Source of the DNA: a virus
Lineage: Duplodnaviria; Caudoviricetes
Length of the DNA: 64,000 nt
Reading direction: 5' to 3' (one strand)
IMG/VR virus record: IMGVR_UViG_3300021514_000002
Span: 64,001-128,000 of that record
Under the pieces are notes generated by a model. It did not search any database and had not been told where the DNA came from. It saw nothing but the letters and a program-made list of their open reading frames with translations. Made by a program: the position numbers and the translations under genes. Numbering within the stretch: the first letter of the stretch is position 1; every line of letters begins with the position of its first letter. Shown one piece after another: positions 23,070-35,913 of this stretch.

Positions 23070-23085
23070 TTATGCTCTCCAAATT

Positions 23086-23111
23086 AAAAGGGGACATGTT
23101 TGTCCCCTTTT
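23086..23111. terminator. Intrinsic terminator (bidirectional form)
   Basis: aaaaggggaca-tgtt-tgtcccctttt. Confidence 0.8.
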
Positions 23112-23123
23112 AATATTGTTGGT

Positions 23124-24608
23124 TTACGTTGTGGCTTCCACCTGTTCACGCACTTCTTCAAACGTATATTCTTTAGTAATTTTACCATTTAAGAATACAG
23201 TTTTAAGTTGTGGATTAGGATAAACACCTTCTCTGTCAGTAAAGTAATTACCATTGACAGCATTTTTATATAACATCAATCGTCCGCGTTTACTCTTCTT
23301 ATTGGTTACGCCATCAGAAGTAATAGGATCTTTATAAACGTCGACATCTTCGCCGTCAATCTTCGCCCATGATGCTTTCATTGCAAATTGATTGGTATCG
23401 CGATCAACTTGTTGAAGCAATCCACCACCTTGACCCAAGACTACATTGTCAGAACTAAATCCATACCCAACTAATGTTGATAAGATATCTTCAATACTTT
23501 CAATATTAATACCATCACCTTGTAAAATACGAACATTATTCAGTACTTTATAACCCTTACTATTAACAGTGCTACCATAAGTAGAATCAATTAACATTGC
23601 AATTTTTGAAACAACTTCTGCAGGGTTTCCACTGTCTGGACGGATAACCAATTGTGAACCACAAGCCAAAACTTCTTCTTTTAGTTCCTTGCCCCACAAT
23701 TCACCAACAGCGTTATAGATGTCATATGAATCAGAGACCACTGAAATAATAGGATATTTTCCACCGAACTGTTTAAGCATATTACGATACGCAGCCAATT
23801 CGCCTTTTTTCATCCAAGTAGTAATAGAACTATGTTCAGCCGCTGGCACAGACCATGCTAACATGTTCCGTGTGTTGTAGTATTTCATGGCATAAATGAT
23901 ACCAGTAATAGTATCTGTACCCTTGAAATTAAGTAAGTGTGCAGAACCGCCGATACCAGCACTTTCTTTTGAACTTACGCCACGTGCGCCAAAGTCATGC
24001 AGTTTAAAATCTAAACCAGCCATAGCTGCTTCATCTGCCGTTTCTTCCATGTATTGACGGATAATCTGTTTAGAAGTCCAACTATTTGACGCAACAGTCA
24101 TAGGATACCAAACGGCTCTATGAATTGAAGTTTCAATATAAGAAGTCAACCATGGCACATTATCATCAGTATTTTCAATTGTAACAACTGCATTTTTGAA
24201 TGGTAGCACTGTACCTTCTGCGACTGCTTTTACTTCAACTGGTAAGTAACCATCTAAGTTATTGACGATATAGTCCCAACCTACGCGGTTGAAAGGCTCG
24301 CCATGTAAGAAGAAGAAAACTTCTGCTTGGTCGACCATTTCTTTGGTGACGCGCTTGGCTAGATATTTCTTTAGATAAATTTGTAAACCGTAGAAAACAG
24401 TACGTTCATATTTTCCACCGCGCGATTCAATATATGAAAACACACGTGTTGTGTTTGGAGGGTATTGTAACCAGTGACTGGCTTTATAAGAATCTACATC
24501 CAGTAAAATATTTTCTTCTGGATCAAAAGAATCAAAATCTAATTCGGGTGGGTTTGTTAGCCATTCTTGTGGAAAGCTAATTGGTTGTTCTAATGTTTTA
24601 ATATTCAT
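23124..24608 (-). CDS. nadV: Nicotinamide phosphoribosyltransferase
   Basis: DSYKASH, LHDFGARG, VPAAEHS, VSDSYD, IRPDSG, QGDGI. Confidence 0.96.
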   Translation of the reverse strand: MNIKTLEQPISFPQEWLTNPPELDFDSFDPEENILLDVDSYKASHWLQYPPNTTRVFSYIESRGGKYERTVFYGLQIYLKKYLAKRVTKEMVDQAEVFFFLHGEPFNRVGWDYIVNNLDGYLPVEVKAVAEGTVLPFKNAVVTIENTDDNVPWLTSYIETSIHRAVWYPMTVASNSWTSKQIIRQYMEETADEAAMAGLDFKLHDFGARGVSSKESAGIGGSAHLLNFKGTDTITGIIYAMKYYNTRNMLAWSVPAAEHSSITTWMKKGELAAYRNMLKQFGGKYPIISVVSDSYDIYNAVGELWGKELKEEVLACGSQLVIRPDSGNPAEVVSKIAMLIDSTYGSTVNSKGYKVLNNVRILQGDGINIESIEDILSTLVGYGFSSDNVVLGQGGGLLQQVDRDTNQFAMKASWAKIDGEDVDVYKDPITSDGVTNKKSKRGRLMLYKNAVNGNYFTDREGVYPNPQLKTVFLNGKITKEYTFEEVREQVEATT

Positions 24609-24655
24609 AGGAAATCCTCCTAAGTTGTTGTTATCCGCGAAGTCTATCTTCGCGG
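24608..24655 (-). promoter_or_regulatory. 5' UTR motif: G-ANAGA-C hairpin plus GGAGGATTTCC RBS hairpin (copy 1)
   Basis: CCGCGAAG-ATAGA-CTTCGCGG ... TAGGAGGATTTCCTATG; promoter TTGACT-N17-TATAAT at 24663-24691. Confidence 0.75.
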
Positions 24656-24914
24656 GTGTTGTATTATATATTACTATAGTATATTAGTCAAGCCTTATTT
24701 TGGCTTTGTAAATCCAATATTACTAATGCAAGATTGGCCAATTCTACATCATCTGTAAAATTATGAAGACAGGATTGTTTTGCTTCTGTTGTTACACCAT
24801 CATTTGAAAGTAACGAAAGCACATGTGGTGATGCTTTTTTTACTCTTGTGAGTAACTCATTAATTTCATCTTCGAATTCAACAAGATCAATCTGTAATTG
24901 TTTCATTTTACCCA

Positions 24915-25151
24915 TTATATTTTCCCCTTTTTAATACAAGTATAAACATCATCACGAAATTGTGTATCGTTCAGTCCCCATTCTAATGCAAGACATTGTA
25001 ATTCACTTGGTAATTCCATAAAGAAGCTTTTTAAATCTGTCTCGTCATAAGACTTTCCACATGCCTCATATATCGCATCATGGAGACCTGCCCCGTTATT
25101 ATTCGCAAAGACTTCTTTCACCATTGCAATTTTAAATTCTGGACTAAACAT
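24915..25151 (-). CDS. Hypothetical protein (tandem paralog)
   Basis: HDAIYEACG...EWGLNDTQFRDDVY, shared with 25162-25404. Confidence 0.75.
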   Translation of the reverse strand: MFSPEFKIAMVKEVFANNNGAGLHDAIYEACGKSYDETDLKSFFMELPSELQCLALEWGLNDTQFRDDVYTCIKKGKI

Positions 25152-25161
25152 TATAACCTTC

Positions 25162-25404
25162 CTATATTAGCGTTCCCGCTGCCTTTTGTGTTGTAATATA
25201 AACATAAACCTCGTCACCAAAGACGGTATCGCTTAGTCCCCATTCAACCGCAGTCATTTGAATACGATGAGGTAATTTTAAAAATAATGCTATCAATTTT
25301 TCTTTAGGATGTGAAATTCCACTGGCTTCGTACACAACATCATGGAAATCATCATAATCTTCATAATTTTCAAAAAGCGAATTAACTGTTGGCATCAAAT
25401 CCAT
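25162..25404 (-). CDS. Hypothetical protein (tandem paralog)
   Basis: HDVVYEASG...EWGLSDTVFGDEVY. Confidence 0.75.
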   Translation of the reverse strand: MDLMPTVNSLFENYEDYDDFHDVVYEASGISHPKEKLIALFLKLPHRIQMTAVEWGLSDTVFGDEVYVYITTQKAAGTLI

Positions 25405-25405
25405 A

Positions 25406-26554
25406 TTATTTCTCCGGCAATCTTGCTAACATTTGTTTTATAATGTGGTAATGATCTTCAAACATTTGATCTTCCATTTTTTCAAACACGTTCAATGGAA
25501 TCCATTTTGCTTTGTCAGCGTCGTCACTACCTTTAACCTTTGGTAATTCCCCCGCAGCCAACTCAATAATATAAGTATGTGTGATAATCCTGCCGCGCAG
25601 TGAACGTTCTGGATGTTCAAATACATGTGAGCTTTTAATACTTCCCTTCAGTACAGGAACAGGAACTTTAATTTTGGTTTCTTCGCGCAATTCACGAAGA
25701 GCACCGTCTATTGACCATTCCTTGTGATTTAAATAACCACCAGGCATCGCATATAATCCACGACCAGGCTCTGCTTTACGTCGTACTAATAATACGTGGC
25801 CTGCTTGAATTACCACCACATCCACTGTATTGAAGTATGGTTTATATGGTGCTACTACATAATTACGGCGCAAACATTCAATAGCGTTTCTTACTGCCGT
25901 TTCCGAACTACCAGTATATCGGGATATTTCGTTTTCTAAGAAATAATCTAACATAGCACTCATATCGTACATGCGATCATGTCCAATTTGAAAATTATAT
26001 TCGCGTACAAGTTGTTCATATTCACGTGTCAACATGAACGATTTTAAGTAATCATGAATTCCTTTTGGAAGATTGGTTCCAATTTTTCCATCAAAATCTT
26101 CGTTTTTGAATAAAGCTTCGCGGATATCTGTCGCATGTAAATCAGCAATATTATTTACGTTAATCGTTTTCCATTGTGGAAACATCTTAAGATAATAAGA
26201 GGTTTCATCTTTAGAATATCCAATGATACCATTTTTATCTTCATCGTTAATGTGTGGCTGAACGACTTCTTGTACTTGTTTAACCCACGCAGGATCGTTA
26301 TACATAACATCACGCAATGGTAAAATAGTAACTCTATCTTGTAATTCATAAGGTAACGATGAATAAATCATCTCAGCACGTTCATGCCATAGCCACGGAT
26401 TCTTAGGTGTACGTGGTTGATTAGCGGAGCCAATCAATATAATAACTTGATTTGCCATGTTTAAAGCTCTCATGACAGTTTCAATATGTGCATTATGTGC
26501 TGGTTGAAATCTACCAATATACATAATGTTATTGTATTCGTATTTTTGGTTCAT
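25406..26554 (-). CDS. nadM: Bifunctional NMN adenylyltransferase / Nudix hydrolase
   Basis: IGRFQPAHNAH (HIGH-type) plus Nudix box GG...ALRELREET; start moved to MNQKY. Confidence 0.93.
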   Translation of the reverse strand: MNQKYEYNNIMYIGRFQPAHNAHIETVMRALNMANQVIILIGSANQPRTPKNPWLWHERAEMIYSSLPYELQDRVTILPLRDVMYNDPAWVKQVQEVVQPHINDEDKNGIIGYSKDETSYYLKMFPQWKTINVNNIADLHATDIREALFKNEDFDGKIGTNLPKGIHDYLKSFMLTREYEQLVREYNFQIGHDRMYDMSAMLDYFLENEISRYTGSSETAVRNAIECLRRNYVVAPYKPYFNTVDVVVIQAGHVLLVRRKAEPGRGLYAMPGGYLNHKEWSIDGALRELREETKIKVPVPVLKGSIKSSHVFEHPERSLRGRIITHTYIIELAAGELPKVKGSDDADKAKWIPLNVFEKMEDQMFEDHYHIIKQMLARLPEK

Positions 26555-26599
26555 CTGGAAATCCTCCAAATAGTAATTATGATTAAGTCTGTCTCAATC
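26554..26599 (-). promoter_or_regulatory. 5' UTR motif (copy 2)
   Basis: GATTGAG-ACAGA-CTTAATC ... TGGAGGATTTCCAGATG. Confidence 0.72.
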
Positions 26600-27413
26600 G
26601 TTATTTGTAAATATTATAACACAATTTTCTTAATTGTGCCAATTATAATTAGTGTAAATTTCTGTAGTAGTTATTACATTTTGGTTGTATACAACCATCT
26701 ACAAAAAATAAATATTTTCTATGTAAACTACTACCACATTCATCACATATACTAATACTACCTTCCTTAATTATTCTACCGAGAGGTGCTATTAGCTCTG
26801 GTACGTCTGTTATTGGCTCTGGTACGTCTGGTAATTTTTTTTGTACTACACGAAGTTTTATATCCTTATAAAATAACATAATTTCTTTAGTGTGCCATTC
26901 TTTAATTAAATGTTTTAATCGTTCTGTTGTTAGTTCTGCCTTGAAATAAAAACAGACCTCGCGCTCATTATTTTCTCTATCTTTAATAGAAACATTTTTA
27001 TTGCAAAGAATCTTTAGTTCGCGACATTCCTTAAGAAAATTGACAGCTTCTGACGGTTCAAGTGAAATTTCCGCAGGCACACCACCTTTCTTTTTGGCTT
27101 CTGTAATTAGTGAATCCATTGCCAACATCATTTTATTTTTAATCGTCATTAACATCGTTTTGCCTTTTAATGTCTTTGATTTCTTTGGTTATGTTAACGA
27201 CCGCTGCGACTGCAACATCTCTTATAATAGTTATTGTTTGTTTAATTTCCGCTTCTGTTTTTAATTCCCATTCTTTTTCCGCATCATTAAAGTTGAGAAA
27301 AAGGAATACAATAAGAGCAGTAATCAAAACAGACCAAAATAAATTATCAATTATAATGAGTTGAACCACCCAAAGTATTAATATAACAAAACAACCCGCT
27401 AAGATAATTGGAA

Positions 27414-27692
27414 TCATTGTATTACCTCATAACATGTATAGCTTTCTCTACAAGCCCATAAACTACCATCAGAATGTCGTTGCATTTTAACAGTATTATA
27501 TGAGCGCCTACTATTATCAATATGAATAGGAGGTATAGATTCAACATTTGGTGTTGAATAAGAAATATCGTCATTAATACTATTTTTTACGCTATTCCCC
27601 GCACCGATAGCAATGATGAAAAGAATTGTTATAATTGCCATAACAACAATTAATTCAATTAATGTAAATCCTTTCTCTTTCATGTCTACCAT
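27414..27692 (-). CDS. Prepilin-type N-terminal methylation motif protein
   Basis: KGFTLIELIVVMAIITIL. Confidence 0.75.
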   Translation of the reverse strand: MVDMKEKGFTLIELIVVMAIITILFIIAIGAGNSVKNSINDDISYSTPNVESIPPIHIDNSRRSYNTVKMQRHSDGSLWACRESYTCYEVIQ

Positions 27693-28543
27693 TTCATTTT
27701 TTCCGTTAACACGCTAAAGAAGTTCCAGTCCTTTGGTCTCCAAATTTTAACTTCTTGCGGATGTTTTCTAACTCTAAATTCAACTATAGTACCAGCAGGC
27801 TTAGTACAGGTAAATATTGGTTGGCCATCGGCAATAATATCAATTCTTGGAACACGGTCGGTTAGTTCAACCTGTACCGTTATTATATCACGGCCTGTTG
27901 TAATAATAGGACGAGAAGTTAATGTATGTGGAATTAATGGAACAACCTGCATGATGTTAGTAGATGGGCTTACGATTGCACCACCTGCCGATAACGTCAT
28001 TGCAGTAGAACCAGTGGAGGATGATACCAGTACACCGCTACCTAATTGTTTACTAACAAAATGTTCATTAATAAACACTTCTGTTATAAGCGGCGCATTT
28101 ATCCCATTACCACTAACCACAAATTCGTTCATTGCTTTCATTTTAAATGGTTCTTTAAAACCTTCCCCATTTATAGAGTATTGGCCTTCAAGAATCATTC
28201 GTTTTTCAAGGATAACATTATTTTCATATAAAATGTCATCAAGATACTTATTTAAATTATGGGGGATTTCTTCTGTTAAAAATCCAAGCGTGCCTGTATT
28301 TAAACCAAGTACGGTAGAATTTTTATAATTAACAGATGCGCGCAATGCACCAAGCATCGTACCATCGCCACCAATAGAAACGATTAAAGCACGTTCTTCA
28401 AAACTATCAGGATACCAAAACGTTGTTGGAATCCCACGCGATTTGCCATAAGAATAAACAAGATCTGCCACCCGCTGGGTTTCGGCATCCTCACCTGGTT
28501 TACAAAAAATCATTATACAATCAAATGTAGTAGGCATATTCAT
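27686..28543 (-). CDS. nadK: NAD kinase
   Basis: GGDGT, GTLGFL, NE, STGSTAxxLSAGG. Confidence 0.93.
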   Translation of the reverse strand: MNMPTTFDCIMIFCKPGEDAETQRVADLVYSYGKSRGIPTTFWYPDSFEERALIVSIGGDGTMLGALRASVNYKNSTVLGLNTGTLGFLTEEIPHNLNKYLDDILYENNVILEKRMILEGQYSINGEGFKEPFKMKAMNEFVVSGNGINAPLITEVFINEHFVSKQLGSGVLVSSSTGSTAMTLSAGGAIVSPSTNIMQVVPLIPHTLTSRPIITTGRDIITVQVELTDRVPRIDIIADGQPIFTCTKPAGTIVEFRVRKHPQEVKIWRPKDWNFFSVLTEKMKW

Positions 28544-28553
28544 AATAAATTCC

Positions 28554-29495
28554 TTACTTGCTAAATTCTAACATTCTTTCTACAGGTTTAATTGCAGCTG
28601 CAATCATTTCATCAGAAAGATAATCAATTTCAACACCAGCGGTACCATTAATAGATTCTTGCACCAACTCAAGCGTGTTTTGTTTCATAAACGGACATGC
28701 GTTACACTGACATCCTGTATAAGTTGGTGCCAATCTAATGTCTAAATCTGGCCGAGCTTCACGCATATTATACAGCAAACCTTCTTCCGTTGCAACATAA
28801 ATTATCGCTTGCGTATTGGATGTTTTAGGTAAATCTTTAATAAATTGTAACATCTTACTTGTTGAACCCACCATATCTGCACGCTTTAATACTGGCAATG
28901 GTGATTCAGGATGTGCAATTAAGTACTTAGGGCCGTCTGACCATGTTCCCATAGCCTTGTTAATTTCATCTTCTTTAAATTTATCATGTACGTCGCAAAC
29001 TGCATCCCATACTGTCATATCGTATCCATATTGATAATTCAAATATGCGCCCATGTTTCTGTCAGGTGAAAATATAACTTTATTTCCTTTGGCAATTTCT
29101 GCGGCAACAACATCATCAACATTACGCGATGTTACGATAATATCTGCTAATGATTTCATTTTAGCGTCAGAATTGATATACATTACGTGTGTGGTTTCAT
29201 AGCCAGCCAGTGCATTAAAAAATCGTTGGTTGGCGTCCCATATTTCTAATAGTTGGAAGTTTGTTTGTTCAACTAAAGAGCATGATGACTCTGCGCTTGG
29301 TAGGATGACTTCTGTGTCAGGCACGATCATCTTAGCCGTTTCAGCCATGAACCTAACTCCCGCGAAAACAATACGTTCAGGGTTGATTTCTTTGGCTTTC
29401 ATTGCTAATTCTAATGAGTCACCAACAAAATCTGCCATTTGTTGGACTTCTGGAATCGTATAATAATGAGCGAGAACTAAAGTATTTTTATCCAT
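28554..29495 (-). CDS. nadA: Quinolinate synthase
   Basis: LAHYY, GDS, GVRFMAETAK, CSL, YINS, HPE, CPFMK. Confidence 0.92.
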   Translation of the reverse strand: MDKNTLVLAHYYTIPEVQQMADFVGDSLELAMKAKEINPERIVFAGVRFMAETAKMIVPDTEVILPSAESSCSLVEQTNFQLLEIWDANQRFFNALAGYETTHVMYINSDAKMKSLADIIVTSRNVDDVVAAEIAKGNKVIFSPDRNMGAYLNYQYGYDMTVWDAVCDVHDKFKEDEINKAMGTWSDGPKYLIAHPESPLPVLKRADMVGSTSKMLQFIKDLPKTSNTQAIIYVATEEGLLYNMREARPDLDIRLAPTYTGCQCNACPFMKQNTLELVQESINGTAGVEIDYLSDEMIAAAIKPVERMLEFSK

Positions 29496-29496
29496 G

Positions 29497-29841
29497 TTAC
29501 CCCTCCACGAAGGTACAAACCTTCTTCATTTTGCGAATGATAGTAATAAATTTACTGTCGATGGTATTGCTAAATGATCCGCCGAATTCTGGCTGAACGA
29601 ATTCAAAAGTTTTACGTCTTGGATTGTAAGTTCCATCGGGGTTTAATTTACGAATGGTTACAGTCCATCCTGCTGGATAGTAATCACCGGGACCATGACC
29701 ATAACCGTCCCCGTCCATTAAAGCACTTTCGACGATATACACATGACGATTAAGGTCTTTTGGAAATTTTGTAAAATGTGATGGGCTTTTAACATTGGCA
29801 AACGTAATAACATTACCAATTTGTAATTTTTGTGTGTTCAT
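29497..29841 (-). CDS. Hypothetical protein, first gene of the nadA-nadK unit
   Basis: GGYGHGPGDxYP-like motif; preceded by the UTR motif. Confidence 0.7.
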   Translation of the reverse strand: MNTQKLQIGNVITFANVKSPSHFTKFPKDLNRHVYIVESALMDGDGYGHGPGDYYPAGWTVTIRKLNPDGTYNPRRKTFEFVQPEFGGSFSNTIDSKFITIIRKMKKVCTFVEG

Positions 29842-29887
29842 CGGAAATCCTCCAATAAGTTGATACGGGTGGGGTCTATCCCCACCG
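29841..29887 (-). promoter_or_regulatory. 5' UTR motif (copy 3)
   Basis: GGTGGGG-ATAGA-CCCCACC ... ATTGGAGGATTTCCGATG; TTGACA at 29922-29927. Confidence 0.75.
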
Positions 29888-29923
29888 CTTATATTATATT
29901 TATATCATATTGTAGCCATAATG

Positions 29924-30475
29924 TCAAGCTAATTCGTTACAGATTAATCCACGTGTTTCGGTAAGAACCTGACCTAGCCAATTAGTGCCTTTCCATGTAG
30001 TAGGATTAAACGCATCTGGATTATCTTCAGCCAAGCCAACGCCCCAGATTTTATCAACAGGACTTGCTTCGACTAATAAATAATTGGCAGTTTTTTCTAA
30101 TGCTTCAAATAATTCTTCATTCTGTGAGAATTTTGCAAGATTCGCCCGTAATACGAAATCACGACAGACGGCATTCCAAGCTGCAGGATTAAAGTTTTTA
30201 ACACTGCGACCAATCATTTGTTGCGCTCGTGGATATTTTATAAATCCTGATTGTTTTGTTTCTGAACCAATACAATCCATAATTTCTGCTTCAGCAAAAA
30301 AATCACCAAACATTCTTGCCTTTGATGCCATCATGTATTGTTCGGCACAATTATATTCTATGCCTTCAATTTCAAATGGTGAATAAAACCATTGACTAAA
30401 TGGTCCACGCCAGAAACATAACGTCATATATTCTTCTGATGTTGGGTATTGATTAACTAATTCTAACGGTGTCAT
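29924..30475 (-). CDS. NADAR (YbiA-like) family protein
   Basis: FSQW, AEQYMMASKA, KFSQN, LVEASPVDKIWGVG, NWLGQVL. Confidence 0.9.
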   Translation of the reverse strand: MTPLELVNQYPTSEEYMTLCFWRGPFSQWFYSPFEIEGIEYNCAEQYMMASKARMFGDFFAEAEIMDCIGSETKQSGFIKYPRAQQMIGRSVKNFNPAAWNAVCRDFVLRANLAKFSQNEELFEALEKTANYLLVEASPVDKIWGVGLAEDNPDAFNPTTWKGTNWLGQVLTETRGLICNELA

Positions 30476-31646
30476 CTTTTATATCCTTTCTAGTTGGGCC
30501 GTAGCTCTTGTATTGGAAACGTATGCGTTTCATTGTAAAATCTTCTATGGCTTCCATTCCGTCTTCATTTAGTTGGTCAAGACACGTAATAGTATAAGCA
30601 CGTTTCGCACCACGCGGTGCATAGTTTAGAAAATCTTTATCTGTAATGCTTTGCATTAAGCGTGAATCTAAAATACCAAATCGTAATTCGCCTTGGAATT
30701 GATTTGGAATATTTGTTTCATCTACAATATCATAATATTCTGGCATTGCAGGGCGTTCATCATCTAGTGGACCAGCACCATGGCGTGTAGTATAAGCACG
30801 TGTAACATAATTAACAGTTACATCATGTTCCCCTGGAATCGTTTTAAGTATTTCGCTTATATTTTTCATGCCGCAATTTGAGCGTGTAACATGTGGAAAA
30901 TATCCATAGTCCATGTCAAGTAATAAACCTTGTGCACCTTCAAAGATAAGTGTGTTATTTTCAAAATATGAAGCGTCAACAACTTCTATATGTTGGAGCA
31001 TAAATTTACAATCATCTACAAAATCGTACATAACTTTATCATTATATAAGATTGACAAGAAATTTTCACCAACGTTATCCATGTTGATTCTTGTTGGTAT
31101 ATAATCTTCACGAATTGCATCTTGTTCCATTAACAGTCTATTTAACATTACATCTTTAGATAAATTATAAGATGTTAATAAATCATTAACGGTTAAATGT
31201 GAAAATGTAAGTTTTCGTTCTAGTGTTTCACCGAAACCAACCCCACAACTGCCATGGGCATCATCCCCACGCATCAATTCCAAGCTTTGATTTAATAACA
31301 TATCGAAAGGTGTTGTTATAATACTTTCAGGATCAATATATATTTTAGGTTCAATCCCAAATTCCTTAACAAATAATTCATATTCTTTTCTAAACAATAT
31401 TGGATTGCTTACAAAGAAACTACTTAAAAAAGTTGGAGAACCATTAAATGTTCCTGCTCCAAAGTGTGAAAATACATGTCGTTTCCCATCTGGCGTTACA
31501 ACAGTATGACCAGCTTGTGCCCCACCATTAGAACGAATAACAACAGCATCATTATACTGCGAAGAAAAATAATCAGTCATAAGACCTTTACCACTGTCAC
31601 CATAAGCAGAATCTATTATAGCTATTACGTTACTCATAATATTCAC
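30453..31646 (-). CDS. Adenylosuccinate synthetase-like protein
   Basis: GDSGKG, NGGAQAGHT, SCGVG, FEGAQGLLLD, TRHGAGP. Confidence 0.88.
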   Translation of the reverse strand: MNIMSNVIAIIDSAYGDSGKGLMTDYFSSQYNDAVVIRSNGGAQAGHTVVTPDGKRHVFSHFGAGTFNGSPTFLSSFFVSNPILFRKEYELFVKEFGIEPKIYIDPESIITTPFDMLLNQSLELMRGDDAHGSCGVGFGETLERKLTFSHLTVNDLLTSYNLSKDVMLNRLLMEQDAIREDYIPTRINMDNVGENFLSILYNDKVMYDFVDDCKFMLQHIEVVDASYFENNTLIFEGAQGLLLDMDYGYFPHVTRSNCGMKNISEILKTIPGEHDVTVNYVTRAYTTRHGAGPLDDERPAMPEYYDIVDETNIPNQFQGELRFGILDSRLMQSITDKDFLNYAPRGAKRAYTITCLDQLNEDGMEAIEDFTMKRIRFQYKSYGPTRKDIKDDTVRIS

Positions 31647-32585
31647 CTATTGAAATTGATTTATTGTTTGTATATAATTTTCTGTATTGTCAAATATATC
31701 ATAATTGAATGTTTCAGAATATCCACTTTTAATATATTTTTTTGCTTGTGTAAAAGTATTTCTTTTGTATTTTTTTAAAATATTGCTTTCCATTTTTTGT
31801 GGTATATTGCCATCTTCAAACCATTCATTAAATAATACAATAACCGTAAAATCTTTATTTACTTGTAAACGTTTAATTCTTACATCTATATCACCATTAG
31901 TAATTCCTATTTTATAAAATGTACACTCATCACTTACAAACTTAATATAGTAAAGTAATCCACCTTTTGTTGGAATGAATCCTCGCCTTGCACAATCAGG
32001 ACACCCATTCATATGTAAATGGTCATTGGGTCTTTGTGTAAAAATTCCATGAATATTGCATATAATCTTAACCTTTTTATGCGATGCTTTATAGTTAACT
32101 AAAGAATAATCATATAAATCTCCATGAACTTCTTTAGCCTCTTTCATAAAAATATCATTTGTTTTAGCACGTTTAATGAAACATCCAGGACACCCATTTC
32201 CACTTTTATGATAACAGGGAGGTTGTAAAAAAACACCATGTACATTACATATTATTTTAACTTTGCCCAATGCGCTTTCATAATTAACCAATGAATAATC
32301 ATATAAATCACCATGAACTTCGTTAGCTTCTATGATAAATTCATCTGTGGTTTTATATCTACCACTACATTTAGGACATTTATCACCTCTTATATGTTGT
32401 TTTGGTGTTTGTTTAAATATCCCATGTATTTTACATTTTATATCTACTTTAGTGTTCGTATTAACATATTCAATCAATGAATAATCATATAAATTGCCAT
32501 GTTTATTTTTAAAATCTTGAATGCATTGTTCTTTAGTTTTTCGTTTCATATAGGTATGTATGGTGATTGCGCAATCACCATACAT
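31647..32585 (-). CDS. Homing endonuclease-like protein (repeated xxHGxxYDYSLVxY units, C-terminal GIY-YIG/T5orf172-like domain)
   Basis: Three F...HGxLYDYSLxxY...CxxHG...CxxC repeats; LYYIKF...YKIGIT. Confidence 0.75.
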   Translation of the reverse strand: MYGDCAITIHTYMKRKTKEQCIQDFKNKHGNLYDYSLIEYVNTNTKVDIKCKIHGIFKQTPKQHIRGDKCPKCSGRYKTTDEFIIEANEVHGDLYDYSLVNYESALGKVKIICNVHGVFLQPPCYHKSGNGCPGCFIKRAKTNDIFMKEAKEVHGDLYDYSLVNYKASHKKVKIICNIHGIFTQRPNDHLHMNGCPDCARRGFIPTKGGLLYYIKFVSDECTFYKIGITNGDIDVRIKRLQVNKDFTVIVLFNEWFEDGNIPQKMESNILKKYKRNTFTQAKKYIKSGYSETFNYDIFDNTENYIQTINQFQ

Positions 32586-32607
32586 ACCTCCTATAAATAC
32601 ACCATTT

Positions 32608-33534
32608 TTAGAATCTTGTTACATCAGAAGCAGCGTCAAAAGCTTTTTCTTTAGCAGCAAGATCAGAAACTGCATCACGAACAACTATTGAAGTGTCACC
32701 ACTCCAGCTTTTCGCAACTTCTTCTTTATCGCGTCCTTCATTTATTTCAATGACAGAAACGATAAGTTCTGACAGTTTCGTATAATCAGATAAAATGATT
32801 ACATTTTGTCCAAGATGCTCTGCCCAACGTGCTCGTACCGTGTCAGCACCATATCTTTTAGCATAGTAACCTTCTTCGATAATGATGTGATAAACTTCAT
32901 ACATCTTTTGTGCAGCATCGACAGTTTCTTGGAATGGAATATCCGCTTGAACCCCCACATCACCAATAAAATCTTGAACACCGCGTTTCTCGGTTACTGT
33001 TGGTGGCAGTTCATCACCAATTGTAAACAAGTAACCTTTCTTACCGCGTTTTTCAAAGCAATCAATTGATGTGTGATATGCCGCAAAGTACATTGGCATA
33101 TCGTACGATTCATGATCGTTGCCGCCGCCGCCGTGTTCAATGTACATATTTTCTAATGCGTTTGCAATTGTTATATCAGCTTCAAATTGACTAACTTGTA
33201 GAGGCGCAGAATCACAAGAAACATCACCAATACCTGCTACCATAATATGTGGATCTGTTACAGGTTTGCGATCATAGATTTCTTGAAATAATACTCCAAG
33301 GCCTTCACGAATAAGTGTGTCCGCGATCATGCCCATTGAACCTGTTACATCACATCCAATGATAATAGCTGTTGATTCTGGATTTTCATCAGAATCCCGC
33401 GATTCGCGGTTTATGCCCTTTGGATCAAGGTCAGCGTGCATTGAACGGCTTCTGAAAATTTCTTCTGTGCGTTTTGTTTTTGTCGTAGCTGAATAACCTT
33501 TCCAGTCTCCAGCATCCCATCTTGATGTTCCCAT
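32608..33534 (-). CDS. von Willebrand factor A domain protein
   Basis: DVTGSMG MIDAS-type motif; GGGGNDHESY; FTIGDE. Confidence 0.85.
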   Translation of the reverse strand: MGTSRWDAGDWKGYSATTKTKRTEEIFRSRSMHADLDPKGINRESRDSDENPESTAIIIGCDVTGSMGMIADTLIREGLGVLFQEIYDRKPVTDPHIMVAGIGDVSCDSAPLQVSQFEADITIANALENMYIEHGGGGNDHESYDMPMYFAAYHTSIDCFEKRGKKGYLFTIGDELPPTVTEKRGVQDFIGDVGVQADIPFQETVDAAQKMYEVYHIIIEEGYYAKRYGADTVRARWAEHLGQNVIILSDYTKLSELIVSVIEINEGRDKEEVAKSWSGDTSIVVRDAVSDLAAKEKAFDAASDVTRF

Positions 33535-33549
33535 GATAATTCTCCTTCT

Positions 33550-34590
33550 TTAATATAATTGACTAATGTCATAATTGAATATAGTAAACTTTCGTTTACC
33601 GTAACAACGTTCTAACGTTGCATTCCAGCCTTCGTATTCTTCAAGTGCAGAAAAATTAGAAGGTGTTCTTATCCAGTTTACCATTTCAATTGGAATGTCC
33701 TTATTGAATAATAGTTTAGAACCACTTAAAGTAGGATCGCCTAAACATCCAATAGCAACAGCTTTCACAGCTTGCCTATCATAACATGTGTTAGCATTTT
33801 TATCAACCAACAGTTCACTGGGTAAAATCTTTATTAACTCAGACGGCATCGCCTTTAGTTTTGTGTTTTCTTTTACAGAATACCACCAACCACCCAATAA
33901 CATACACGTATGTTCTTTTGGGTTAACAAATATAGTTGATGGTAAAATAGAATTGTGCGTAATCCCACTAAAGTTTAAGAACATGGCGATGTTATATAAA
34001 GAACTAACTACCCATGCAGTATGTTTAGGTGGAAGTGTTTTGTTTGGTAGAAAATCAATCAAATCTTGCAGTAAGACGGCATCTTTAGGCTTATTCATTA
34101 CCACAACATAGCCAATATCAGTTTCGTCATTGCGAACGATACTTGGCATTAACTTCTTGAATTCGTTTTCAAATTTGGAATTTTTATACTTGATGCCTTT
34201 CATGGCGCTGATGCCATTAGCGTAAAGGTCTTTGTTTTCACCATCAATCACATATAGTATATATTTGCTACCAATATAAATACGGCCAAGTTCAAAGGTA
34301 CGGAATTTTTTATAAGTGAACCTAAAAGTCTTGCCTGTTTTTGTGGTATATTTTAAAGAAGCTAATCCGTTCCAAGTATTTGTCGCGATGCGACCTTTGG
34401 CGGTTTCGGCAAGTGCCATTAAGTGAATGAAAACATCTTTGGCTTTAGGATTGATATTTGTATCAGGATGCCATTTACCACGCAACTTTTTAAACTCGAG
34501 TTCAAAACTATCACGGGAAAATATCTTTTCGGGTGACAAAATGTTAACTTTTAATATTTCTGCTGCTGATAAATCTAATATTCTTGGCAT
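33550..34590 (-). CDS. J-domain-like / protein-kinase-like fusion
   Basis: N-terminal KWHPD; C-terminal degenerate kinase-like GITHNSILPSTIFVN...LLGGW. Confidence 0.65.
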   Translation of the reverse strand: MPRILDLSAAEILKVNILSPEKIFSRDSFELEFKKLRGKWHPDTNINPKAKDVFIHLMALAETAKGRIATNTWNGLASLKYTTKTGKTFRFTYKKFRTFELGRIYIGSKYILYVIDGENKDLYANGISAMKGIKYKNSKFENEFKKLMPSIVRNDETDIGYVVVMNKPKDAVLLQDLIDFLPNKTLPPKHTAWVVSSLYNIAMFLNFSGITHNSILPSTIFVNPKEHTCMLLGGWWYSVKENTKLKAMPSELIKILPSELLVDKNANTCYDRQAVKAVAIGCLGDPTLSGSKLLFNKDIPIEMVNWIRTPSNFSALEEYEGWNATLERCYGKRKFTIFNYDISQLY

Positions 34591-34816
34591 TAGGAAATCC
34601 TCCTTACGCGTTCGGTGCGAGTGGAGTCTTTCCCCACTGCATATGTTTCTATTTATACGTGTGTCATTATTCTGTAGATTCTTACACCCTCAAATGCTCT
34701 TACTCTTGGGTGAGTCCTTCCGCTACAGAAGTCTTCATTTATTCGCCTACCCACTTACCGAAGCATCATCCGCAGCGGAGCAAATACGAGGTGGTCTTTC
34801 CACTATCTCTGAATCT
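34590..34816 (-). promoter_or_regulatory. Long structured 5' leader with two G-AAAGA-C hairpins and the GGAGGATTTCC RBS (copy 4)
   Basis: Hairpins at 34791-34803 and 34617-34640; promoter TTGACA-N17-TATAGT at 34823-34851. Confidence 0.7.
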
Positions 34817-34854
34817 GTGTACACTATACATTAACAATTTTTAAATGTCAAACA

Positions 34855-35913
34855 TTATTTTGATAACTCATCATCTACCCATTTATTGAATGTTTGTAAT
34901 TTGCGATTACATCCAAATAAACATTCTTTAGATAATGGTACTGAAAATTGCTTCTTTGCATTAGCCACAACATCTGCCAAACTACCATCGGCAATATTTA
35001 GACCAGTGCTTGGAACATTATCACGTAACAAATGAGAGCAATTCCATACTTCACCTATTTCATTAATCGCTATTTCACTAAGTTGAATATAACACGGCAA
35101 TTTATCATTAATCGGAAAACGAATTCTTGGGTCAAATGTTTCAACATCATGCGCAGTGTCAAATAATACTTTTGTTTCAGCATCGTTATTTTCTTCTGTT
35201 AATGCACGCAATTGTGGAACGATTTCAGTAAACAGTTCGTGAACCTCAGTATTGTTTAGTAAAAACTCACCACCTACGCCTTTATAAGATGAGAAAAATA
35301 CAGCATAAAACTTTGGCCATCGCTTGTAGTACATACGAAGAAATTCAGGAATCTGTTTGTAATTTTGACGTGTAACTGTATACGTTAAACTAACGATTGG
35401 TCCACCAAACGGAATAACAACATTATCATGTATAAAATCTAAGTTGTCCGTCACACGTTCAAATGCGTTCTTGACTTGTGTGATTTTGTTGAAATATGCA
35501 GCATCTGTAGTATCCAACGACACTTTAAGTCTTTTGATAGAACGATATTGTTCAATAGATAACTGCTTCAAATTATTTGTATTAAGATGAAACTCAACAT
35601 TTGGATATTCGCTAACACATGGGAAAATCTCATCAAAGAATTTAACAACGGTTGGTTCGCCACCAGTAATATGTAAAACACCCCCGCCCATGTCAGAATA
35701 TTCTTTCACCATTTTATTGAACATGGGGAATTTCATTTCGGACGCTGTATGATGTTCATTACAATATGAACAATTCATGTTACATCTGTTAGTGATGTGT
35801 AATGACAGTCTACGTAATGGAGGACATTTGTTTTCACGAACCGCAATGACAGTTTCCCCTGCCCTCTTTTCGAACAAATCCCAATACTTTCCACCTAAAT
35901 TTAAATTATCCAT
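34855..35913 (-). CDS. Radical SAM protein
   Basis: CNMNCSYC, ITGGEP, VSLD, C-terminal Cys (SPASM/twitch-like). Confidence 0.9.
   Translation of the reverse strand: MDNLNLGGKYWDLFEKRAGETVIAVRENKCPPLRRLSLHITNRCNMNCSYCNEHHTASEMKFPMFNKMVKEYSDMGGGVLHITGGEPTVVKFFDEIFPCVSEYPNVEFHLNTNNLKQLSIEQYRSIKRLKVSLDTTDAAYFNKITQVKNAFERVTDNLDFIHDNVVIPFGGPIVSLTYTVTRQNYKQIPEFLRMYYKRWPKFYAVFFSSYKGVGGEFLLNNTEVHELFTEIVPQLRALTEENNDAETKVLFDTAHDVETFDPRIRFPINDKLPCYIQLSEIAINEIGEVWNCSHLLRDNVPSTGLNIADGSLADVVANAKKQFSVPLSKECLFGCNRKLQTFNKWVDDELSK

Follow-up and report, generated by a model that had tools for sequence, protein, structure and literature searches.

The operators of Escherichia coli thrS (autoregulation by ThrRS), of gene 43 in phages T4 and RB69, and of the MS2 replicase are hairpins with free stems and fixed loops that lie immediately upstream of or on the ribosome site of an enzyme's own mRNA, and binding to them competes with the 30S subunit. 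Here we describe a leader element of similar layout in a 64-kb window (the whole stretch of DNA analyzed), which is part of a 363,531-bp phage genome with a G+C content of 36%. The element consists of a hairpin (P1) with a G-ANAGA-C apex, a linker, and a small second hairpin (P2) that carries the Shine-Dalgarno (SD) sequence, and it precedes four operons of NAD metabolism. As in the MS2 operator, the start codon can lie within the hairpin. Unlike those operators, with which it shares no homology, this one element serves a whole pathway of as many as four operons and occurs in bacteria as well as in phages, and we regard the likeness as a resemblance in how the leader might work rather than as membership.

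Reconstitution of NAD by phages is a recently recognized counter-defense, and the NARP2 pathway, made up of nadV and a nicotinamide mononucleotide (NMN) adenylyltransferase, burns phosphoribosyl pyrophosphate (PRPP) and overproduces NAD+ according to its authors (bioRxiv 10.1101/2024.02.11.579819). Full-text searches found nothing published on the control of NARP2 genes, and the papers on NARP1/2 and NARP3 make no mention of a leader, hairpin, untranslated region, or riboswitch. The leader sits on the ribosome sites of the NARP2 genes, and in this phage it is shared by the genes for NadA, NAD kinase, and NADAR and by a conserved trio of J-kinase-like, orf308, and PurA-like genes. A full-text literature search for the leader itself returned no description of it, and its 11-mer appeared only in unrelated primer lists.

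Four NAD operons of one phage share a leader

The 11-mer GGAGGATTTCC occurs as four exact copies on the minus strand of the window (24620-24610, 26567-26557, 29853-29843, and 34603-34593), where 0.53 matches with up to one mismatch would be expected by chance. Each copy lies 0 to 2 nt 5' of the ATG that opens nadV, nadM-Nudix, the orf114-nadA-nadK operon (operon 3), or an operon headed by a J-domain/kinase-like gene (operon 4). No further copy was found in the whole 363,531-bp genome, which extends the remark in the initial annotation that the 11-mer stands at no other gene start. Hairpins with a G-ANAGA-C apex and a stem of at least 7 bp also number four genome-wide, all of them in these leaders, and the two features always occur together and at a start codon. 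The P1 stems are unrelated in sequence (Table 1), and the distance from loop to 11-mer is 20 to 23 nt in all four leaders, exactly as first reported. A covariance model built from 15 leaders (R1) retrieved only these four copies from the genome, with E values of at most 1.5e-8, the next match having an E value of 5; an improved model (R2) retrieved the same four copies only. Because the 11-mers and hairpins are confined to four leaders genome-wide, the observation stands, far beyond chance.

Promoters and transcription starts are predictions from sequence throughout. In the nadV, nadM, and orf114 leaders, strong sigma-70-like promoters end 7 to 13 nt 5' of P1 (Table 1), which agrees with the earlier placement of three of the hairpins close to a predicted transcription start. 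About 90 promoter-like sites were found in the genome, and the leader motif stands at only four of them; it is not a general early-gene cassette. The genome promoter scan omits the orf114 promoter, whose -10 element ends in A. The usual SD of this phage is AGGA or AGGAG, and GGAGGA is present at 7 of 570 predicted starts.

The leader of operon 4 is about 230 nt long and contains an extra 4-bp hairpin, GTGG-AAAGA-CCAC, 19 nt after the -10 element. This hairpin sits where P1 sits in the other leaders and has no P2 after it. It is one of only four 4-bp hairpins of the G-ANAGA-C type genome-wide and is possibly a relic or a second copy of P1. The 238 nt from 34585 to 34822, which span the leader and the first codons, fold moderately well (z = -2.4). 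The spacer between the two hairpins has no Rfam match and no counterpart in the leader of the syntenic operon of another contig, G005.

The leader is conserved as an RNA structure

Across the copies, P1 has a stem of 3 to 11 bp with free sequence and an apex that reads R-G-ANAGA-C-Y, the N being U in about 80% of leaders and otherwise C, A, or G. The linker is single stranded and 11 to 21 nt long, with 9% G in canonical copies, whereas some phage variants have only 4 to 6 nt. The P2 hairpin is weak, with a stem of 3 to 9 bp, again of free sequence (GGA/UCC, GUAA/UUAC, UAAA/UUUA, or AAGG/CCUU), and in nearly all leaders its pentaloop opens with the GGA of the SD (GGAUU, GGAGU, GGAAC, GGAGC, or GGAGA). 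The AUG often lies within the 3' arm of P2. Outside the SD, the only invariant bases are those of the P1 apex. In the phage studied here, three of the four leaders form P2 in their minimum-energy structure, in keeping with the earlier suggestion that the 11-mer region can fold with GGA in the loop. The identical 11-mer, by contrast, did not survive as a defining feature: the P2 stems differ elsewhere, only the GGA of the pentaloop is invariant, and GGAGGATTTCC is one lineage's version of P2.

To our alignment of 55 distinct leaders (A3) both hairpins contribute covarying pairs. In A3, 92.5% of cells pair, compared with 58.6% in shuffles, and pairing falls to 34 to 51% when the registers are slid. 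Eleven of the 12 pairs vary on both sides, including all five pairs of P2. Of 38 canonical leaders, 32 have both hairpins as their structure of minimum energy. Since G-U pairs, valid on the sense strand only, are frequent and the loop is asymmetric, the structure exists in sense RNA and not in DNA. These data bear out the function at the RNA level that the initial annotation had read from stem covariation. Inspection by eye found no loop-loop, loop-linker, or pseudoknot pairing conserved across the copies.

Loop identity was also tallied at 80 viral nadV loci with any upstream pentaloop allowed, an unbiased check that covers nadV loci only. The loops were ATAGA (45 loci), AGAGA (6), ACAGA (3), and AAAGA (3), and ANGGA was found at none.

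The leader accompanies NAD genes in phages and bacteria

Scanning IMG/VR with a pattern that combines the loop and the 11-mer gave 50 loci, of which 13 (11 distinct leaders) have a real stem. All 13 have an ATG after the 11-mer and open onto nadM, nadV, nadA, the J-kinase-like gene, or a small open reading frame (ORF) that heads a nadM/nadV operon; the roughly 35 stemless matches have no NAD-operon context. R1 found one to four copies in each of five other large phage contigs, and some of these carry compensatory changes in P2, such as AGA...TCT replacing GGA...TCC. The leader is present at 48 or more of the 80 viral nadV loci. Among 57 distinct leaders from viral nadV loci, 33 stand before nadV, 21 before nadM, and 3 before small ORFs of NAD operons.

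In bacterial contigs representing one genome per species, a pattern scan that required a proper hairpin found 22 nadV leaders and 1 nadA leader. All 23 belong to Gammaproteobacteria in the GTDB sense, which includes Burkholderiales; chance matches spread across phyla. The carriers are Thiothrix, Methylococcales/Crenothrix, Cellvibrio, Microbulbifer, Marinicella, Budvicia aquatica, Oleiphilaceae, Thiodiazotropha, and one contig of a Burkholderiales metagenome-assembled genome (MAG). Whole-genome scans of five carriers found one copy each before nadV and a second copy in Thiothrix fructosivorans, where one lies right after the nadM promoter and the other between the nadM stop and the nadV start. 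Because the latter sits between cistrons, the element acts per cistron. In an even sample of 151 Gammaproteobacteria, 7 of which have nadV, R2 found the element in 2 genomes, with two copies in each. At the bacterial loci, nadM-Nudix lies directly upstream of nadV in 18 of 23 cases and is the sole conserved neighbor, so there is no dedicated regulator gene nearby. Searches of phage and bacterial genomes, as proposed at the outset, gave matches before nadV, nadM, and nadA, and the suspected specificity for NAD genes is kept in well over 100 leaders from other phages and bacteria combined.

In a tree of NadV proteins, those with the motif form one phage clade and one gammaproteobacterial clade, about 50% identical. 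KVP40, XacN1, RsoM2USA, and G075 branch outside these clades and lack the motif, with one bacterial gene among the outsiders; of the nadV loci of KVP40, XacN1, and RsoM2USA, which have no motif, that of RsoM2USA has a P2-like SD hairpin only. The leader has been co-inherited with its NadV lineage for a long time.

A search of sequencing runs placed the DNA of the phage in hydrothermal-vent metagenomes and found no RNA sequencing runs with the region or with nadV alone. The vent habitat fits Thiotrichales-like hosts, as evidence of habitat only. A near-identity DNA search of the region against a collection of cultured phages gave no match, and the best NadV in that collection is 55% identical. 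A search for related loci seeded with the NadM protein alone found nothing.

Comparison with described RNA families and possible mechanism

No Rfam 15 model matches any leader, in agreement with the initial annotation, which could assign no named family. At gathering thresholds the window gave tRNAs only, and permissive searches of 24500-35000 (E up to 10) and of five other leader loci (E up to 5) gave no leader match. We dismissed a subthreshold match to rsmX that lies 5' of the leader in G005 and scores 23.9 bits, the threshold being 56 bits. The leader is a new, uncatalogued family within the known kind of translational leader and operator RNAs.

On balance, we lean slightly toward the reading that these leaders are a conserved cis-acting translational operator in mRNA that marks an NAD regulon, with P1 read in trans and a protein as the favored reader. 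The leader very probably sets the level at which the NAD enzymes are translated. Judging from the structure, P2 would limit access of the 30S subunit at the ribosome site. P1 ends about 25 to 35 nt before the AUG, at what would be the 5' edge of the ribosome footprint, and may be a sequence-specific recognition site at which a trans-acting reader shifts the balance between masked and open ribosome sites. Host-type early promoters would transcribe all four operons, and the shared leader would tie their translation to one signal. Of the readers first proposed for a translational operator, which the placement on the ribosome site supports, a dedicated phage-encoded protein is less likely because the same leader occurs in bacterial chromosomes with nadM as the only conserved neighbor; CsrA is also disfavored, as set out below. 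Feedback by an enzyme, like that of ThrRS on thrS, is the most economical protein model, given the lack of a regulator gene nearby and the constant company of NadM-Nudix and NadV. NadM-Nudix or NadV is perhaps the reader, and ligands of the NAD pathway might compete for it. The circumstantial evidence for a ThrRS-type circuit is that NadM-Nudix is the sole conserved neighbor and that the motif is missing from three bacterial nadV genes of the motif clade, in genomes where no NadM-Nudix was found with the NadM of the window as the query. The size of the invariant P1 apex, small for a metabolite pocket, and the absence of Watson-Crick complementarity between the loops also point to a protein.

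Several observations weigh against this reading. Transcription starts, effects on translation, and binding are all inferred, and we know of no RNA-binding activity of NadM or NadV. NadM-NadV pairs without the motif exist (KVP40 and G075), so that their presence is not sufficient. The three motif-less genomes are small MAGs searched with one query protein, and for this reason the absence of NadM from them is weak evidence. In the operon 4 copy, the minimum-energy structure pairs P1 with the SD region instead of forming two hairpins, an alternative fold that is of minimum energy only there and in a few other copies. The sample is also biased, because retrieval was seeded by patterns that required AGAC and in part the 11-mer. 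Finally, the small size of the element does not exclude a metabolite, since riboswitches of the guanidine-II type exist.

In the guanidine-II (mini-ykkC) riboswitch, a linker of variable length and sequence joins a pair of small hairpins whose loops are conserved, close to the ribosome site. The leader has a similar layout, and by this precedent it could be a minimal riboswitch to which NAD+, NMN, ADP-ribose, nicotinamide, or PRPP binds directly. The ligand might form a bridge between the loops of P1 and P2 and so lock the hairpin that masks the SD and AUG, with translation going up as NAD falls. The strict link to a single pathway in phages and bacteria alike, the lack of a dedicated regulator gene at bacterial loci, and the invariance of loop bases beside freely varying stems and linker all speak for direct binding, which would also fit the reported PRPP cost of NARP2 (bioRxiv 10.1101/2024.02.11.579819). 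However, P2 has no invariant base beyond the GGA of the SD, and because it is otherwise variable, the pocket would come down to two closing pairs and a loop of 5 nt, very little to hold a ligand the size of a dinucleotide. We found no complementarity between loops or of a pseudoknot kind, and the AUAGA and GGANN pentaloops, which resemble neither one another nor ACGR, lack the mutual complementarity of the kissing ACGR tetraloops of guanidine-II. The NAD+-I (nadA motif) and NAD+-II (pnuC motif) riboswitches share with the leader a context of NAD biosynthesis or salvage, and NAD+-II also involves the SD, but their kind of internal loop or pseudoknot is not seen here, and their models match no leader at E values up to 10. 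We judge a riboswitch rather unlikely. A global RNA-binding protein of the host, above all CsrA/RsmA, might instead repress as a dimer that bridges the P1 loop and the SD loop. Leaders bound by CsrA/RsmA likewise have two hairpin loops, one with GGA on the SD, at dimer-compatible spacing and in Gammaproteobacteria; P2 resembles a textbook site, because its short hairpin loop carries GGA and overlaps the SD, the A-N-A-G-A of P1 differs from A-N-G-G-A at one position in five and has its variable base at N, and CsrA genes are present in each of the five motif-bearing bacterial genomes tested. The GGA in P2 is accounted for equally well by SD function alone, however, and the P1 loop carries AGA, never the GGA that CsrA needs. 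Drift to GGA would be expected, yet no ANGGA turned up in the unbiased tally of 80 nadV loci or among the model matches. CsrA is encoded in none of the five motif-bearing phages checked, and its sites are usually degenerate and not pathway specific, whereas the leader is pathway specific and far better conserved. CsrA is, moreover, near-universal in the class, yet the motif is present in 2 of 151 genomes and in 2 of the 7 with nadV, and regulation by CsrA seems to us very improbable.

The leader could also lack a sensor altogether and be a constitutive cassette, spread by recombination, in which a 5' hairpin stabilizes the mRNA, the linker offers standby binding, and a structured, strong ribosome site follows. 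In the phage, P1 is at the predicted 5' end or close to it, where hairpins protect mRNA, the linker is unstructured and poor in G, and the leader is co-inherited with one NadV lineage. A stabilizer needs no invariant loop, however, and here A-N-A-G-A and the G-C and R-Y closing pairs are kept while substitutions have saturated the stems and the linker. The leader stands at no more than 4 of the roughly 90 promoter-like sites, bacterial operons have it also between cistrons, away from the 5' end, and it precedes unrelated genes (nadA, J-kinase-like, and small ORFs) only inside NAD operons. We give the cassette little credence. PeSL elements, reportedly described by Arbiol et al. in 2010, are said to combine an early promoter and a stem-loop before many unrelated genes in plastic regions of T4-type phages; the four phage sites with the leader are all NAD operons, and a bacterial copy has no promoter. 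NrtR, a Nudix-related transcriptional regulator, controls the same genes (nadM, nadV, and prs) in other bacteria, but its boxes are conserved DNA palindromes at promoters. The stems of the leaders differ fully, contain G-U pairs, work on one strand, and occur also between cistrons, with the conserved bases in an asymmetric loop. The lambdoid nut site (boxA plus boxB) for N-type antitermination, which has a GNRA-like pentaloop (GAAAA or GAAGA type) once in each early operon along with boxA and terminators further downstream, did not fit either, in that the loop here starts with A and the element stands at single cistrons right on the ribosome site, even within a bacterial operon, boxA not having been searched for. 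As far as we know their defining positions, tRNA anticodon arms, T-loops, and ANTAR, TRAP, and PyrR sites do not fit the P1 loop.

The leader offers a direct experimental handle on the regulation of NAD pathways in phages and bacteria and a search model for members of the NAD regulon of unknown function. Cultured carriers include Budvicia aquatica DSM 5075, Thiothrix fructosivorans ATCC 49748, T. caldifontis DSM 21228, and Microbulbifer variabilis. It is tentatively possible, although we would sooner doubt it than assume it, that the leader is a sensor of NAD status, be it a minimal riboswitch of a new class or a feedback switch between enzyme and RNA, and that it holds the costly NAD-rebuilding genes silent until NAD+ falls. 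If so, it would represent a new class of sensor, and the rebuilding of NAD would be switched on exactly as Thoeris, SIR2, DSR, or similar NAD-depleting immunity fires.

Genes behind the leaders

Table 1. Features of the four leaders and their operons, in coordinates of the 64-kb window
Feature	Position	Strand	Details
nadV promoter, predicted, sigma-70 type	24663..24691	-	TTGACT-17-TATAAT; 11/12 consensus match; ends 7 nt before P1
nadV leader P1	24635..24655	-	8-bp stem CCGCGAAG/CTTCGCGG, loop ATAGA; R1 60.5 bits, E 3.8e-12
nadV leader P2	24608..24622	-	TAGGA(GGATT)TCCTA; minimum-energy fold; holds SD GGAGG and first base of ATG
nadV	23124..24608	-	Nicotinamide phosphoribosyltransferase, 494 amino acids (aa); Pfam NAMPT_N 1e-30, NAPRTase 1.4e-51
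nadM operon promoter, predicted	26613..26642	-	TTGGCA-18-TATAAT plus TG extension; ends 13 nt before P1
nadM leader P1	26581..26599	-	GATTGAG/CTTAATC, one G-U, loop ACAGA; R1 45.7 bits
nadM leader P2	26552..26572	-	8-bp hairpin, loop GGATT; ATG 26554-26552 in 3' arm; from fold
nadM operon	24688..26554	-	nadM-Nudix and three small ORFs; Pfam CTP_transf_like, NUDIX
nadM-Nudix	25406-26554	-	NMN adenylyltransferase plus ADP-ribose pyrophosphatase type; Pfam CTP_transf_like, NUDIX
orf114-nadA-nadK promoter, predicted	29899..29927	-	TTGACA-17-TATAAA; read from the sequence; ends 12 nt before P1
orf114 leader P1	29868..29886	-	GGTGGGG/CCCCACC, loop ATAGA; R1 58.2 bits
orf114 leader P2	29838..29858	-	8 bp, two G-U pairs, loop GGATT; ATG 29841-29839 in 3' arm; from fold
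Operon 3 (orf114-nadA-nadK)	26649..29841	-	Pfam NadA 2e-78, NAD_kinase, N_methyl
orf114	29497-29841	-	
nadA	28554-29495	-	Quinolinate synthase
NAD kinase gene	27686-28543	-	
Pilin-like ORF	27414-27692	-	
ORF	27139-27417	-	
ORF	26649-27155	-	
Operon 4 promoter, predicted	34823..34851	-	TTGACA-17-TATAGT; promoter scan
Operon 4 extra P1-like hairpin	34791..34803	-	
Operon 4 leader spacer	34639..34790	-	About 150 nt; elevated G+C
Operon 4 leader P1	34620..34638	-	AGTGGGG/CTCCACT, one G-U, loop AAAGA; R1 45.8 bits
Operon 4 leader P2	34592..34604	-	AGGA(GGATT)TCCT; ATG 34590-34588; from sequence and fold
Operon 4	29924..34590	-	J-domain/kinase-like to NADAR, five genes
J-domain/kinase-like gene	33550-34590	-	
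orf308	32608-33534	-	
T5orf172/HNH-type endonuclease	31647-32585	-	
PurA-like gene	30453-31646	-	Adenylosuccinate-synthetase-like
NADAR gene	29924-30475	-	

With four operons and about 18 genes, this phage has one of the largest regulons of the element (Table 1). The nadV ATG is at 24608-24606, and the pair flanking P2 in this leader covaries across copies. A terminator-like palindromic hairpin lies directly past the nadV stop (23083-23114); no other terminator was predicted between the four units. The start of nadM was set at ATG 26554 (382 aa) because of the SD spacing in the leader and the homologues, and not at the listed TTG 26569, which falls inside the leader. The three small ORFs of this operon (25162-25404, 24915-25151, and 24688-24915) match only PHROGs of unknown function.

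Beyond this phage, four contigs (G004, G005, L004, and L093) likewise have nadA behind the leader. Searches of the phage genome with PF01729 (quinolinate phosphoribosyltransferase) and PF02540 (NAD synthase) gave no match, NadB not having been searched for. Within operon 3, the product of the 92-aa ORF at 27414-27692 begins with a methylation motif like that of type IV pilins (PF07963, 1.7e-9).

The J-kinase-like, orf308, and PurA-like genes of operon 4 are syntenic behind the same leader in G005, with 49 to 56% identity. Since the trio stands behind the shared leader, it is linked to NAD metabolism, and it may represent an undescribed NAD-linked pathway. In G005, separate leaders precede, in order, J-kinase-like-orf308-PurA-like, nadA-nadK, nadM, and nadV; given this synteny, the wider regulon is conserved and not an accident of one genome. 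Orf308 belongs to PHROG 2971 (unknown function) and the PurA-like protein to PHROG 1211, with a PurZ-type annotation, and a J-kinase-like homologue with 36% identity is present in L015. The homing-type endonuclease gene (31647-32585) sits between orf308 and the PurA-like gene; as it is missing from that place in G005, it is probably a recent insertion.

A radical SAM gene (34855-35913) adjoins operon 4 upstream, and KVP40 also has radical SAM genes beside nadV. Elsewhere in the window, 11 tRNA genes lie on the minus strand between 781 and 8020 (two for Thr, three for Lys, one for Val, two for Asn, two for Ala, and one for Ile). Outside the window, on the minus strand of G000:C1, three promoter-like sites (approximately 153050-153151, 165620-165722, and 168180-168282) each have a GC hairpin behind them and, after it, one or two DnaA-box-like repeats (TTATCCACAGG); the region could be a phage replication origin or a DnaA-titrating region.

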